Shown in pieces: positions 1 to 6,344 of a DNA stretch of 64,000 nt (position 1 is the stretch's first letter; every line of letters starts with the position of its first letter). The notes beneath the pieces are model-generated. The model was not told the DNA's origin. It ran no database searches and saw only the letters and a list, made by a program, of their open reading frames with translations. Source of the stretch: Escherichia coli (GTDB lineage: Bacteria > Pseudomonadota > Gammaproteobacteria > Enterobacterales > Enterobacteriaceae); the NCBI RefSeq assembly GCF_003334815.1, contig NZ_QOWO01000019.1. One strand, written 5' to 3'. The translations under genes were made by a program, and so were the position numbers.

Positions 1-1172
1 ACGTAAGGCGTTGTTATGAAGGCTTCAGCAAATAAAACATTATTTTCTCGATCTTCACTATAAATAGCGCCAGGTATTATATCCCATCCTCCGGGGCTAA
101 GCTGTGTTCCAGCATGGATATTGTGTGAAACGGTGATCGGAGAAAAATTTAAACCTGTTTGCAAGGTAATAATATTAAGAATGTCCCCCATAACGCCCCG
201 AACCGAGCCATTTTCATCCGTCATAGAATAGGGGGGCGAGTAAGGATTTTCCAGCACCTTTAAATTGGGATGCTGCTTAATCCACTGTTTTTCATGTTCA
301 GTGAGTTCTAATGGTTTGTTCAGAAAGGCCAGGTTTCCTGTATCAAGCCAATTTTGTGATACTTCATAGCGAACTTCATTTGTTAAAGCATCAACAAATC
401 TATTGAGTACTTCATTAAGAATGACAGATTCTTTTCTGGTCAAGAAAAAATTATATTGACGCGGCGAGTTATAATATTTCACTACATTTAAGGAGTGAGT
501 GAAATAGCGGGAAATCATACTGCTGGTAATGATGTTACTACCAATAAAGTAATCATTGTGCCCAGCTGAGACGGATGCTAATGCCTGATATAAATTTGTA
601 AAAGAGATAATTGTTGCTTTTGGAAATGATTGATGAATTACCTCGTCTGGGGGGTAATTTGCTACCCGAGCAATATTTACTGGTTTTGGTGAGGTAAGCG
701 GTCGCATTGAGTCGTGAAGGGTGGTTACCAGCGCCGGAAAGGTAATTATCAATGGTTTGGTTGCAGCAATGTCATTATTAAGAGGCGGCGAAGTAACTAA
801 ATGTGATAACACTATATCGACTTCACCTTCTGCAAGCGCGTCCATTGCTTTTTGATGATCTGCGTATTCCCGGAGTGTTAATTTGATATTTAACGCTCTT
901 TTTAAAAGATTTAAATAATCAGCATTAATACCACGAACCCGTTGCTGCGAATCGGTATGCAACAACGTAGCCGTTTGGGACTTATGTACTGCAATCACAA
1001 GATTTTTTTTGCTCGCTAACCAACGTAATTCCTTGTTGCTCAGACGTAGTGGATCAAGTGTGACACGGTTGTTACTACTGATGCCACGATATTCGATGTA
1101 ATCTTCGTCTGCGAAACTTATGGTCGACCAAAGACCACAACAGAGAAGAAAAATATAGGGTAAAAACTTCAT
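1..1172 (-). CDS. evgS: Sensor histidine kinase EvgS, N-terminal part only (gene continues past window start)
   Basis: Reverse-strand frame starting at ATG 1172 translates MKFLPYIFLLCCGLWSTISFADEDYIEYRGISS..., the known EvgS N-terminus; open to position 1; lies 4 bp downstream of evgA stop as in the evgAS operon. Confidence 0.9.
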   Translation of the reverse strand, partial: MKFLPYIFLLCCGLWSTISFADEDYIEYRGISSNNRVTLDPLRLSNKELRWLASKKNLVIAVHKSQTATLLHTDSQQRVRGINADYLNLLKRALNIKLTLREYADHQKAMDALAEGEVDIVLSHLVTSPPLNNDIAATKPLIITFPALVTTLHDSMRPLTSPKPVNIARVANYPPDEVIHQSFPKATIISFTNLYQALASVSAGHNDYFIGSNIITSSMISRYFTHSLNVVKYYNSPRQYNFFLTRKESVILNEVLNRFVDALTNEVRYEVSQNWLDTGNLAFLNKPLELTEHEKQWIKQHPNLKVLENPYSPPYSMTDENGSVRGVMGDILNIITLQTGLNFSPITVSHNIHAGTQLSPGGWDIIPGAIYSEDRENNVLFAEAFITTPY

Positions 1173-1176
1173 GTGG

Positions 1177-1791
1177 TTAGCCGATTTTGTTACGTTGTGC
1201 GAATGTGTAAAGATCCATCAGTGATTTACATTCTAATTTTTCCATCAGGCGACTTTTATAAGTGCTGACAGTTTTGTTGCTGATGAACATTTTTTCAGCA
1301 ATGTCATTATTATCCTTGCCATCAAGAATATACCGCATGACACTAATTTCTTGTTTCGATAAGGAGTCGAGTTTTTGCTGGTCGGACGTTAAACTTCCAA
1401 CAAACCGGTTGAGAGAGAAGGGGAAATAGCAGTAGCCATTTTTTGCAGCTTCAATAGCCGCAATGATATTGTTCATGCCTTCTTTTTTACTCACGAAACC
1501 ATTAGCGCCAGCATCAGCACAATGTTTCCCGTAAAAATGGTCATTTTTAGCGGAGACGATAATAATAATTCCGCTATATTGGCGCTTCCTCAGCGTTTCT
1601 AACACCTGGATACCGTTAACTCCGGGGATATCGACATCAATGATGACGATATCAGGCTTAAGTGTTTCCACCCGCTGAACGGCACTTCCGCCTTCAGTCA
1701 ACTCTGCTAAGATTTCAATATCGTTTTTGATCAATAAATTACGAATTGCTGCGATAGCAAGAGGATGGTCATCAATAATTATTGCGTTCAT
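1177..1791 (-). CDS. evgA: Response regulator EvgA (NarL/FixJ family)
   Basis: 204-aa ORF MNAIIIDDHPLAIAAIRNLL...; receiver domain plus LuxR-type HTH; sits between evgS and divergent emrK. Confidence 0.95.
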   Translation of the reverse strand: MNAIIIDDHPLAIAAIRNLLIKNDIEILAELTEGGSAVQRVETLKPDIVIIDVDIPGVNGIQVLETLRKRQYSGIIIIVSAKNDHFYGKHCADAGANGFVSKKEGMNNIIAAIEAAKNGYCYFPFSLNRFVGSLTSDQQKLDSLSKQEISVMRYILDGKDNNDIAEKMFISNKTVSTYKSRLMEKLECKSLMDLYTFAQRNKIG

Positions 1792-2015
1792 AGATTATTC
1801 CCTTTGCAATGAAGCATCTCCCTTCTCCCTGTAGTAATACAGACATAAGGCGTCATCTCATTTTCTCAATAAAAATAAGAAAATCTGAGCTTCCTTTAAG
1901 ATAATTCGACAAGTATACCATATAAATAGTCGGCATAAATGAAATGTCAACAATAAAATCAGGGATTGTACCGATGATTTATAGTTTCAAGTTGGCACTA
2001 TAAGTCTTCTTACTA

Positions 2016-2033
2016 ATCCTACAGGCGTAAGAA
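2016..2033 (+). promoter_or_regulatory. Candidate EvgA-binding box in evgA-emrK divergent intergenic region
   Basis: 18-bp ATCCTACAGGCGTAAGAA matches the recalled EvgA consensus TTCYTACA-NN-TGTARGAA with 2 mismatches; about 175 bp upstream of emrK start; a TTCTTAC half-site lies just upstream at 2007-2013. Confidence 0.4.
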
Positions 2034-2206
2034 TTGTATTGCAAAAGCCACGGTTTAGTCCTCTGTTGTTTTTTTTGCACCTCATTTAAATTAGGCCTCC
2101 AACGTTCCTGGGATAATGTGCAACACATGCACTGTGTTTGATATGAAGAATGAATGCTCTTTTCATTCAATTCATAAATTTCATCTATGAGAAATGAGAG
2201 ATAATA

Positions 2207-3370
2207 GTGGAACAGATTAATTCAAATAAAAAACATTCTAACAGAAGAAAATACTTTTCTTTATTGGCGGTAGTTTTATTTATTGCGTTTTCAGGTGCCT
2301 ATGCCTATTGGTCAATGGAATTAGAAGACATGATTAGTACAGATGACGCCTATGTCACGGGGAATGCAGATCCAATTTCTGCACAAGTCTCAGGTAGTGT
2401 CACTGTCGTTAATCATAAAGATACGAACTACGTTCGACAAGGTGACATTTTAGTTTCACTGGATAAAACTGATGCCACTATCGCACTCAATAAAGCTAAA
2501 AATAATCTGGCAAATATTGTTCGGCAAACGAATAAACTATACTTACAGGATAAACAATACAGTGCCGAAGTCGCTTCAGCACGTATTCAGTATCAACAAT
2601 CTTTAGAAGATTATAACCGTCGAGTGCCGTTAGCGAAGCAGGGGGTTATTTCAAAAGAAACGCTGGAGCATACCAAAGATACGTTAATAAGTAGCAAAGC
2701 GGCATTGAATGCCGCTATCCAGGCTTATAAAGCGAATAAAGCTTTAGTAATGAACACACCATTAAACCGTCAGCCACAAGTCGTTGAAGCGGCGGATGCA
2801 ACTAAAGAAGCCTGGTTGGCGCTTAAACGTACGGATATTAAGAGTCCGGTTACCGGCTATATTGCCCAGAGAAGTGTTCAGGTCGGCGAAACAGTGAGCC
2901 CCGGACAATCGTTAATGGCTGTCGTACCGGCACGTCAAATGTGGGTTAATGCCAACTTTAAAGAAACACAACTCACGGATGTACGGATTGGTCAATCGGT
3001 CAATATTATCAGCGATCTTTATGGTGAAAATGTTGTGTTTCATGGTCGGGTGACAGGGATCAATATGGGAACCGGCAATGCGTTCTCCTTATTACCTGCA
3101 CAAAATGCGACAGGGAACTGGATCAAAATCGTTCAGCGTGTACCGGTTGAAGTTTCTCTTGATCCAAAAGAACTCATGGAACACCCCTTGCGTATTGGTT
3201 TATCGATGACAGCAACTATTGATACGAAGAACGAAGACATTGCCGAGATGCCTGAGCTGGCTTCAACCGTGACCTCCATGCCGGCTTATACCAGTAAGGC
3301 TTTAGTTATCGATACCAGTCCGATAGAAAAAGAAATTAGCAACATTATTTCGCATAATGGACAACTTTAA
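2207..3370 (+). CDS. emrK: Multidrug efflux membrane fusion protein EmrK (EmrA paralogue)
   Basis: 387-aa ORF with N-terminal TM helix and HlyD-like periplasmic adaptor sequence; followed by overlapping MFS pump gene. Confidence 0.93.
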   Translation: MEQINSNKKHSNRRKYFSLLAVVLFIAFSGAYAYWSMELEDMISTDDAYVTGNADPISAQVSGSVTVVNHKDTNYVRQGDILVSLDKTDATIALNKAKNNLANIVRQTNKLYLQDKQYSAEVASARIQYQQSLEDYNRRVPLAKQGVISKETLEHTKDTLISSKAALNAAIQAYKANKALVMNTPLNRQPQVVEAADATKEAWLALKRTDIKSPVTGYIAQRSVQVGETVSPGQSLMAVVPARQMWVNANFKETQLTDVRIGQSVNIISDLYGENVVFHGRVTGINMGTGNAFSLLPAQNATGNWIKIVQRVPVEVSLDPKELMEHPLRIGLSMTATIDTKNEDIAEMPELASTVTSMPAYTSKALVIDTSPIEKEISNIISHNGQL

Positions 3371-4908
3371 TGGCAATCACTAAATCAACTCCGGCACCAT
3401 TAACCGGTGGGACGTTATGGTGCGTCACTATTGCATTGTCATTAGCGACATTTATGCAAATGTTGGATTCCACTATTTCTAACGTCGCAATACCGACAAT
3501 ATCTGGCTTTCTGGGAGCATCAACAGACGAAGGCACCTGGGTTATCACCTCGTTTGGTGTAGCAAATGCCATTGCGATCCCTGTTACTGGCAGGTTGGCA
3601 CAAAGAATAGGCGAATTAAGATTATTTTTACTTTCAGTCACTTTTTTTTCGCTGTCTTCATTAATGTGTAGCCTATCGACCAATCTTGATGTGCTGATAT
3701 TTTTTAGAGTCGTTCAGGGGTTAATGGCGGGGCCGTTAATTCCACTGTCACAGAGTTTATTATTAAGGAATTATCCGCCAGAAAAAAGAACATTTGCTCT
3801 GGCATTATGGTCAATGACCGTGATTATCGCTCCGATATGTGGGCCGATATTGGGCGGTTATATTTGTGATAACTTTAGCTGGGGTTGGATATTTTTAATC
3901 AATGTCCCTATGGGGATTATCGTCCTGACATTATGCTTAACCTTACTTAAAGGAAGAGAAACTGAGACTTCACCGGTCAAAATGAATCTACCAGGACTGA
4001 CCCTGTTAGTGCTCGGTGTTGGTGGCTTGCAAATTATGCTTGATAAAGGGCGCGATCTGGATTGGTTCAACTCGAGTACAATAATAATATTAACAGTAGT
4101 ATCAGTTATTTCTCTGATCTCTTTAGTCATTTGGGAGTCGACCTCAGAGAACCCGATTCTTGATCTCAGTTTGTTTAAGTCCCGTAACTTCACCATTGGT
4201 ATTGTGAGTATCACATGCGCGTATTTATTTTACTCTGGAGCGATCGTCCTTATGCCGCAGTTACTCCAGGAAACGATGGGGTATAATGCGATATGGGCCG
4301 GACTTGCTTATGCGCCCATCGGCATCATGCCACTATTAATTTCACCTTTGATAGGACGTTATGGCAACAAAATAGACATGCGGTTGTTAGTGACATTTAG
4401 TTTTTTGATGTATGCGGTTTGCTATTACTGGCGTTCTGTGACATTTATGCCAACGATTGATTTTACAGGCATCATTTTGCCGCAGTTTTTTCAGGGATTC
4501 GCCGTTGCCTGTTTCTTTTTACCCTTAACAACGATTTCGTTTTCAGGCTTGCCAGATAATAAATTTGCCAATGCCTCGAGTATGAGTAATTTTTTTCGTA
4601 CCTTGTCAGGATCAGTTGGTACGTCGTTGACAATGACGCTGTGGGGACGACGCGAATCGTTACACCATAGTCAGTTGACAGCAACCATCGATCAATTTAA
4701 CCCCGTGTTTAATTCATCGTCACAAATTATGGATAAATATTATGGTTCGCTTTCAGGAGTTCTTAATGAAATTAATAATGAAATAACCCAGCAGTCACTT
4801 TCTATTTCTGCAAATGAGATTTTCCGTATGGCGGCTATTGCTTTTATCTTACTTACGGTTTTGGTTTGGTTTGCGAAACCGCCGTTTACAGCGAAAGGCG
4901 TTGGGTGA
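3370..4908 (+). CDS. emrY: Multidrug efflux MFS transporter EmrY (EmrB paralogue)
   Basis: 512-aa polytopic membrane ORF; start overlaps emrK stop by 1 nt (TAATG), consistent with translational coupling. Confidence 0.93.
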   Translation: MAITKSTPAPLTGGTLWCVTIALSLATFMQMLDSTISNVAIPTISGFLGASTDEGTWVITSFGVANAIAIPVTGRLAQRIGELRLFLLSVTFFSLSSLMCSLSTNLDVLIFFRVVQGLMAGPLIPLSQSLLLRNYPPEKRTFALALWSMTVIIAPICGPILGGYICDNFSWGWIFLINVPMGIIVLTLCLTLLKGRETETSPVKMNLPGLTLLVLGVGGLQIMLDKGRDLDWFNSSTIIILTVVSVISLISLVIWESTSENPILDLSLFKSRNFTIGIVSITCAYLFYSGAIVLMPQLLQETMGYNAIWAGLAYAPIGIMPLLISPLIGRYGNKIDMRLLVTFSFLMYAVCYYWRSVTFMPTIDFTGIILPQFFQGFAVACFFLPLTTISFSGLPDNKFANASSMSNFFRTLSGSVGTSLTMTLWGRRESLHHSQLTATIDQFNPVFNSSSQIMDKYYGSLSGVLNEINNEITQQSLSISANEIFRMAAIAFILLTVLVWFAKPPFTAKGVG

Positions 4909-5015: not shown

Positions 5016-6344
5016 TTAACGGCCTTTTGCCAGATATTGATTCATCTCTTCTTCCGGCACCATTCCACCTCCCGTCGCCCACACCAGATGAGTGGTATTA
5101 CGCAGTTGTTCTGCGCTGAAACCGTGCATCTGTTGGTAACTTACTGATGCACACACGCGCTGAGGTCCGGCCATACCCGCCAGTGCCGAAGGTTCAAGAC
5201 GAATACCTTCTTCCTGCGCCAGCCAGCCAAGCATGTCATACATGGTTTGATCGCTAAGGGTATAGAAGCCATCCAGCAGACGCTCCATTGCCCGCCCGAC
5301 AAAGCCTGATGCGCGACCAACTGCAAGGCCATCCGCTGCGGTAAGGTTGTCGATACCAATATCCTGAACAGAAATCTGATCGTGTAATCCTGTATGGACG
5401 CCTAACAACATACAAGGGGAGTGCGTTGGTTCGGCAAAAAAGCAGTGAACATGATCGCCAAACGCCAGTTTAAGCCCGAATGCGACGCCACCAGGACCAC
5501 CGCCAACACCACACGGCAGATAGACAAACAGAGGGTTATCAGCATCGACGATACGGCCTTGCTGGGCAAATTGCGCTTTAAGACGCTGGCCAGCGACGGA
5601 ATACCCAAGGAACAACGTGCGGGAATTTTCGTCATCAATAAAGAAACAGTTCGGGTCAGACTGCGCTGCTTTACGTCCTTCCTCGACGGCAACACCATAA
5701 TCTTGCTCATATTCCACGACCGTAACGCCATGGCTGCGCAGTTTCGCTTTTTTCCATGCCCGGGCATCAGCAGACATATGAACTGTCACCTTAAAGCCAA
5801 TGCGGGCGCTCATAATGCCGATTGATAACCCCAGATTTCCGGTTGAGCCCACAGCAATGCTGTATTGGCTAAAGAACTGTTTAAACTCCGGAGAAAGCAG
5901 TTTGCTGTAGTCATCATCAAGCGTCAGCAACCCCGCTTCCAGAGCCAGTTTTTCTGCGTGTGCCAGGACTTCATAAATCCCGCCGCGTGCTTTTATGGAG
6001 CCGGAAATGGGCAAATGGCTATCTTTTTTCAGTAACAGTTGCCCGCTGATCGGTTGCTGATATTCTTTTTCCAGCCGTTTTTGCATAGCTGGAATGGCAA
6101 CCAGTTCTGATTCAATAATCCCCCCAGTGGCAGCAGTTTCAGGAAATGCTTTTGCCAGATAGGGTGCAAAACGGGATAAGCGCGCATGGGCGTCCTGAAC
6201 ATCCTGTTCGGTCAGGCCAACATAAGGTAAACCTTCAGCCAATGAGGTCGTGCCAGGATTAAACCAGGTGGTTTCTTTAAGAGCAACCAGATCCTTTACC
6301 AACGGATACTGGGCGATGAGCGAGTTCATTTTAGCGTTTTCCAT
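5016..6344 (-). CDS. dsdA: D-serine dehydratase (D-serine ammonia-lyase)
   Basis: 442-aa [34 protein letters not shown]..., PLP-dependent fold; downstream of dsdX. Confidence 0.95.

Follow-up and report, generated by a model that had tools for sequence, protein, structure and literature searches.

Introduction

In Bordetella, the response regulator BvgA, a NarL-family protein of the paralogous BvgAS system, acts at promoters such as fha from a far-upstream inverted repeat composed of TTTC(C/T)TA-like heptads, and further BvgA dimers load cooperatively toward the -35 element. In Escherichia coli K-12, inverted repeats upstream of yfdX and yfdWUVE are bound by EvgA, as stated in passages of PMC3720670 that cite Masuda & Church 2003. 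Passages of three other papers (PMC9496106, PMC8174306, PMC4283999, citing Kato 2000 and Masuda & Church 2003) describe direct binding of EvgA to the promoter region of emrKY and the presence of an EvgA site at all direct targets. In addition, emrKY is no longer induced when evgA or evgS is deleted (PMC6393483), and EvgA dependence of emrKY is also known from PMC8174306. Because direct EvgA binding and evgA/evgS-dependent induction are both reported in the literature, an EvgA operator upstream of emrKY is already known in K-12, and the present result very likely re-identifies this known site. Our literature search for genome-wide EvgA binding data (ChIP-exo, DAP-seq, SELEX) found none.

Here we analyze the control region between evgA and emrK in a stretch of 64,000 nucleotides of E. 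coli DNA, hereafter the window, with respect to the position, conservation, polarity and promoter context of the EvgA site.

Results

The evgA-emrK locus and its divergent spacer

Positions 1100-3400 of the window are 100% identical to E. coli K-12 MG1655, and the coordinates are converted as K-12 (NC_000913.3) = 2485546 - window position. The evgA-emrK locus was found in 5,403 of the 5,426 complete E. coli genomes; plasmid copies of the segment account for 20 of the 5,447 matching places. RefSeq gives the gene order evgA, emrK, and then emrY, dsdA and dsdX. The main features of the locus are as follows.

1177-1791, minus strand: evgA, a 204-aa ORF in RefSeq, coding for a NarL/FixJ-family response regulator
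1788-1817, minus strand: evgL, a leader ORF of 9 codons (MLHCKGNNL*) annotated in K-12, its stop codon overlapping the evgA start codon
1792-2206: divergent evgA/emrK spacer, 415 bp
1973-2009: conserved palindrome with 18-nt arms (78% complementary) and the core TTATAGT-N11-ACTATAA, directly upstream of the EvgA box
2207-3370, plus strand: emrK, a 387-aa ORF with a GTG start, coding for the periplasmic adaptor of the EmrKY-TolC pump

The identity of both flanking genes is well defined. EvgA matches the NCBIfam equivalog NF007419 over its full length (1-204) with 437.9 bits against a cut-off of 251, thus combining a receiver domain and a LuxR/GerE-type helix-turn-helix with a score above the curated threshold of its family. 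EmrK likewise scores above the cut-off of the EmrA/EmrK subfamily model. The spacer has 34.2% GC; evgA, emrK and emrY have about 40-42%, and the window as a whole has 50.1%. The preliminary description of this DNA had recognized an AT-rich region of 415 bp between the two divergent genes, and both its size and its composition proved correct. The region is not wholly non-coding, however, since evgL lies at its evgA end. Translational coupling and CsrA repression have been reported for evgL (PMC11210196).

Inside the palindrome at 1973-2009, the segment TTATAGTTTC (1979-1988) is invariant across the nine lineages aligned below; to our knowledge, no binder of this palindrome has been described. 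An Rfam scan of positions 1600-2400 returned no known RNA element, the sole match being a chance snoRNA (E = 0.48) far below the gathering score. A generic promoter scan gave one promoter-like site, fewer than in shuffled sequences, and one weak terminator-like hairpin, GTGCAACACATGCAC with a T-rich tail at 2118-2132 on the plus strand, which falls within the predicted emrK leader. The hairpin is kept within E. coli and is not conserved in L005, a diverged locus introduced below. At the other end of the spacer, the longest invariant run of the alignment (27 nt, 2194-2220, plus strand) coincides exactly with a mini-ORF from ATG to TAA (MRDNSGTD*), which overlaps the emrK GTG start out of frame. 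Constraint on the Shine-Dalgarno and start region may be a simple cause of this invariance.

Several strains carry insertion sequences at the locus. An IS1 is located inside the evgA coding sequence of the K-12 derivative NCM3722 (L090), and the same IS1/evgA configuration is seen, by annotation alone, in matches H2-H5 (CY strains, TUM12357). HL15 (L091) has an IS5 inside emrK, as annotated also for SF10 (H7), and matches H8-H10 have other annotated insertions (ISKpn26, IS1). IS elements were considered as disruptors of the control region, and this idea was rejected, as the insertions inspected (NCM3722, HL15) hit the evgA or emrK coding sequence instead; in such strains it is the regulator or the pump that is knocked out.

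Identification of the EvgA box

The site at the center of this analysis is the following.

2016-2033, plus strand: EvgA box ATCCTACAGGCGTAAGAA, consisting of ATCCTACA, GG and CGTAAGAA (K-12 NC_000913.3 2483513-2483530)

The box had been described from the sequence as an 18-bp imperfect inverted repeat with the EvgA recognition pattern, and its coordinates were found to be exact. As an inverted repeat it has complementary bases at 5 of 8 half-site positions; read toward emrK, the distal half is the weaker and the proximal half the stronger one. Compared with TTCYTACANNTGTARGAA, the box has two mismatches, an A at position 1 and a C at position 11. The consensus TTCYTACA-N2-TGTARGAA is said to be that of Masuda & Church 2003; neither this string nor the term 'EvgA box' turned up in our literature search. 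Within the 64-kb window, the box is the sole match to this consensus with at most two mismatches; the expected number of such matches is 0.04, and one occurred in 4 of 100 shuffled versions.

We tested the consensus on other K-12 operons which are called EvgA-activated in the literature. The following sites were retrieved.

safA, plus strand of the locus: TTCTTACAGCTGTAGGCA, 1 mismatch
ydeP, plus strand of the locus: TTCTTACAGGTGTAGGCT, 2 mismatches
frc, plus strand of the locus: TTCTTACAACTGTAAGAA, 0 mismatches
yfdX first site, plus strand of the locus: GTCTTACAATTGTAGGAA, 1 mismatch
yfdX second site, plus strand of the locus: ATCTTACAGTTGTAGTTA, 3 mismatches

None of the shuffles of either locus used in this search contained three matches. 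We then scored the spacer with a position weight matrix (PWM) built from these five sites with the emrK box left out. The box scores 17.3 when read toward emrK and 14.4 when read toward evgA, and the next-best position in the spacer reaches 3.8. Elsewhere in the window, the segment GTCTTTCAGCTGTGGGAA at 61433-61450, with three mismatches and a PWM score of 18.0 on the minus strand, was dismissed as a chance match located inside a 400-aa ORF. The start codon of emrK follows the center of the emrK box at a distance of 182.5 nt.

Conservation of the box

To assess conservation, one genome per species was scanned with EvgA. Few close orthologs were found, none of them in a locus labelled E. albertii, E. 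fergusonii or E. marmotae; the phylogenetic depth is therefore given by two useful diverged loci with the emrKY/evgAS arrangement, L004 and L005, together with the diversity within E. coli. L004 is labelled E. coli (EvgA 97.5% and EmrK 95.6% identical), and L005 (NZ_CACVAF010000001.1) is labelled Yersinia vastinensis (EvgA 94%, EmrK 83% identical). The L005 contig is 590 kb long and has the order emrY-emrK/evgA-evgS with 82-94% amino-acid identity to E. coli, which suggests either horizontal transfer or a mislabelled assembly. The scan also returned L009, a 398-bp contig labelled Rhizobium cauense that matches the 5' portion of evgA from E. coli with 100% identity and is almost certainly assembly contamination.

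Read toward emrK, the orthologous box is TTCCTACAGGTGTAAGAA in L004, with no mismatch to the consensus, and TGCCTACACGTGTAAGAA in L005, with one mismatch. As both boxes are nearer to the consensus than that of K-12, both K-12 deviations have the consensus base in the relatives. We next aligned nine lineages, namely, the window, L004, L005 and six E. coli lineages with spacers 94.7-97.8% identical. Variation within the box is confined to positions 1, 2, 9 (an N of the consensus) and 11, corresponding to 2016, 2017, 2024 and 2026. CCTACA (2018-2023) is invariant, as is the block that contains the proximal half-site:

2027-2040, plus strand: invariant block GTAAGAATTGTATT, the proximal half-site and 7 nt downstream

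No other invariant stretch in the truly intergenic portion of the alignment is as long as this block. Among 12 E. coli spacers (the window included, with four extra ones outside the alignment that all have the identical box), 11 share the same box, and the remaining one has a different base at the N position. The cores CCTACA and GTAAGAA are invariant in every spacer examined, that is, in the 12 from E. coli and in L004 and L005. As judged from these comparisons, the pattern is that expected of a functional operator.

Polarity and promoter architecture on the emrK side

When all six sites are read toward the respective gene, the distal half has the form nnCCTACA and the proximal half is TGTAAGAA. 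The polarity of the emrK box fits this pattern in the emrK direction. The similarity between promoters also extends beyond the box: in a box-anchored comparison, the flanks of emrK and safA share 58 of 140 positions, against 39.7 +/- 5.3 under the null (P = 0.0002; the safA region is L002 around 6020-6110). The elements of the emrK side are listed below.

1997-2004, plus strand: ACTATAAG, 11 nt upstream of the box; the same 8-mer is found at the same offset at the safA promoter
2057-2062, plus strand: AGTCCT, starting about 23-24 nt after the box, at about -42 to -37 of the predicted promoter
2087-2092, plus strand: TAAATT, putative -10 hexamer of the EvgA-dependent emrK promoter, with a 4/6 match to the consensus
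2098-2100, plus strand: predicted emrK transcription start, by analogy with ydeP

AGTCCT occurs at the same offset in safA, and AGTCTT at the same offset in ydeP. In four of the five K-12 promoters with EvgA boxes, a -10-like hexamer with A2 and T6 follows the box at a distance of 52-54 nt, a spacing of borderline significance (P ~0.06). In safA, frc and yfdX this hexamer is TATATT, CATATT and TATGAT, respectively, while the weaker ydeP hexamer, TAATTT, was left out of the count. The emrK hexamer itself is TAAATT in L004 and TAGAAT in L005. The ydeP leader RNA used in PMC11210196 starts at -178, a position 66 nt downstream of the ydeP box. Based on this calibration and on the apparently shared spacing, the emrK transcript is predicted to start at about 2099; by analogy, the center of the box would be at about -74.5 and the 5' leader would be about 107 nt long.

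The 8-mer ACTATAAG may be an additional, weak contact for EvgA, or else an upstream promoter element. More generally, emrK, safA and ydeP may share a composite architecture beyond the 18-bp box, consisting of ACTATAAG, AGTC(C/T)T and a -10 element about 53 nt downstream. If real, this architecture would point to a BvgA-like multi-dimer EvgA complex centered near -74.

Does the box serve evgA?

The box lies in a spacer with promoters on both sides. It might thus be a shared bidirectional operator with positive autoregulation of evgAS as its main or an additional role, a reading which we consider possible, yet on balance doubtful. Autoregulation of evgAS was reportedly observed by Tanabe 1998, and the box is palindromic enough to work in either orientation, given its PWM score in the evgA direction. 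Moreover, evgA homologs in Klebsiella, Buttiauxella, Hafnia and an Enterobacter MAG, of which three lack emrKY, are preceded by box-like palindromes with four mismatches.

L007 203-220; L010 2696-2713; L008 2913-2930; L006 2565-2582: box-like palindromes upstream of distant evgA homologs

Klebsiella and Buttiauxella have the identical 18-mer TTCCTACAGCTGTCATCC, Hafnia has GTCCTACGTATGTAGGCG and the Enterobacter MAG has TTCCTACGTCTGTAGTCC; the remainder of each of these distant loci (3.6 kb each) contains no equally good match. This hints, by sequence comparison, at autoregulatory sites conserved in the Evg/Kvg family. On the other hand, the significance of each distant palindrome is weak (P 0.04-0.19), and two of these sites are orthologs and hence not independent.

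The promoters described on the evgA side are the following.

1912-1920, minus strand: evgA sigma-S promoter with the extended -10 element TGGTATACT, start at about 1905
1923-1950, minus strand: evgA sigma-70 promoter, TTGACA (1950-1945), a 16-nt spacer and TATTTA (1928-1923), start at about 1915

The TTGACA promoter is listed for evgA in PMC3946193. The two starts are derived from the numbering in PMC11210196, which has a leader at -114, an RNA that starts at -124 and +89/+90 as the start codon of evgL, and the box would therefore be at about -110 to -120 on the evgA side. The L005 spacer lacks about 29 nt that match positions ~1895-1923 of the window, the stretch with the evgA -10 elements and start sites. 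Several observations disfavor a bidirectional operator: the polarity of the box and the architecture downstream of it match the emrK direction, no -10 element is found on the evgA side at the offset typical of EvgA promoters, and in macrophages the evgA transcript does not change significantly while emrK is strongly induced through EvgA (PMC6393483).

The additional TTCTTAC half-site

Next to the box, the preliminary description had noted a further half-site, the position of which is exact:

2007-2013, plus strand: TTCTTAC, a lineage-specific variant of an apparent extra half-site, probably not required

One may imagine an operator of three half-sites (TTCTTAC at 2007-2013, ATCCTACA and CGTAAGAA), with the extra one needed for full EvgA binding. 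We deem this unlikely, even though TTCTTAC forms a perfect 7-nt inverted repeat with GTAAGAA (2027-2033) and TTCYTAC is rare, occurring six times on both strands of the 64-kb window, two of these in the 27-bp stretch at the box. With a box in K-12 that is weaker than its orthologs, compensation by a third half-site is also conceivable. Against it, T2011 is found only in the window and in two close relatives with at least 99.5% spacer identity, and the other EvgA promoters have no half-site at the offset of TTCTTAC. At 2007-2013, the other eight sampled E. coli strains have TTCTCAC, L004 has TTCTCAT and L005 has ATCTCAT, alleles which all break the invariant TA core of the half-site. Judging from this distribution, TTCTTAC is a derived single-base variant of the K-12-like lineage. 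Since T2011 is restricted to K-12-like strains, the heptamer falls outside the conserved operator and is probably incidental; its role as an operator half-site was thus not upheld.

T2011 gives rise to a third perfect half-site, and this allele may act as a natural cis-regulatory variant by which the inducibility of emrKY differs between E. coli lineages. The joint reading, in which a composite EvgA architecture is combined with T2011 as such a variant of emrKY inducibility, is speculative and in our estimate rather improbable.

Alternative start sites and chance matches

A second candidate promoter for emrK lies closer to the gene.

2138-2166, plus strand: TTGATA-17-TTTCAT, predicted as a 'constitutive' sigma-70 promoter of emrK by Shimada et al. 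2014 (PMC3946193)

If the EvgA-dependent transcript started here, the box would lie at about -148 and might act from there, for example against silencing by H-NS instead of through contact with RNA polymerase. The spacer is indeed listed, besides this promoter, as bound by the RpoD holoenzyme and H-NS (PMC3946193), and its 34% GC would agree with such a role. However, the promoter at 2138-2166 is a sequence prediction of a constitutive rather than an EvgA-dependent promoter, and the box-to--10 spacing that emrK seems to have in common with safA, frc, yfdX and ydeP favors a start near 2099, so that we regard this arrangement as improbable.

A chance match without a regulatory role, as might be proposed from the two mismatches and from the shuffles of the window that also contain such a match, is very hard to believe for a site that sits precisely where a known direct target of EvgA is controlled, has substitutions only at weakly constrained positions and is nearer to the consensus in diverged lineages.

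Discussion

Taken together, the results make it very likely that the emrKY promoter of K-12 has ATCCTACAGGCGTAAGAA (2016-2033) as its EvgA operator, at which a dimer of phosphorylated EvgA activates a weak downstream promoter. Consensus match, uniqueness, conservation and polarity support this assignment from the side of sequence, and EvgA dependence of emrKY and direct binding come from the literature. The initial proposal that EvgA activates emrKY through this site is supported by the identity of the genes, the pattern in the regulon, conservation, polarity and published data.

The mechanism is very likely as follows. Mild acid and alkali metals are sensed by EvgS, leading to phosphorylation of EvgA, and a phosphorylated dimer of this NarL/FixJ-family regulator, which has a C-terminal helix-turn-helix domain, would occupy both half-sites of the box. 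Bound EvgA would then activate a weak promoter without a good -35 element located just downstream, resulting in transcription of emrK-emrY. In the predicted geometry, the -10 element would be at 2087-2092, the start near 2099 and the center of the box near -74.5; a box at this distance would imply activation via the C-terminal domain of the RNA polymerase alpha subunit and/or cooperative binding of extra EvgA dimers. The latter could contact the weaker flanking elements (ACTATAAG and AGTCCT), as described for BvgA.

EvgA control of emrKY ties the sensing of acid and alkali metals to efflux, and it contributes to bile-salt resistance and to survival of Shigella in macrophages (PMC6393483). The operator at 2016-2033 is nothing new for K-12, yet it represents a sound annotation. 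The modest additions made here are the polarity of the box, a box-to--10 spacing of borderline significance, the extended similarity with the safA promoter, the lineage-specific extra half-site and the presence of evgL in the span. They translate into concrete constructs for dissecting transcription activation by EvgA.

The emrK box shares the 18-bp pattern and the polarity of a distal CCTACA and a proximal GTAAGAA with the EvgA boxes of ydeP, safA-ydeO, frc (yfdW) and yfdX in K-12, and the safA promoter, like that of emrK, has ACTATAAG and AGTCCT at identical offsets. Unlike the other EvgA boxes, the emrK box is located in a divergent spacer common with the operon of the regulator itself, and in K-12 it deviates from the pattern by the A at position 1 and the C at position 11. 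In yfdX there are two boxes at a distance of 38 bp, as against a single credible box in the emrK spacer. A broader comparison can be made with the 7-2-7 heptamer operators of NarL/NarP and with the RcsB box, where dimeric helix-turn-helix regulators likewise recognize inverted short half-sites around a 2-bp center. The half-site sequences differ, and EvgA has its own equivalog model; against the models of NarL, UhpA, FixJ and RcsB, it gives significant scores which are below their cut-offs. In contrast to BvgA, no second PWM site accompanies the box in the emrK spacer (other windows score at most 3.8). Nevertheless, the EvgA half-site TTC(C/T)TA is nearly the same heptad as that recognized by BvgA, and the predicted position near -74 together with the weak flanking elements would fit a BvgA-like arrangement.
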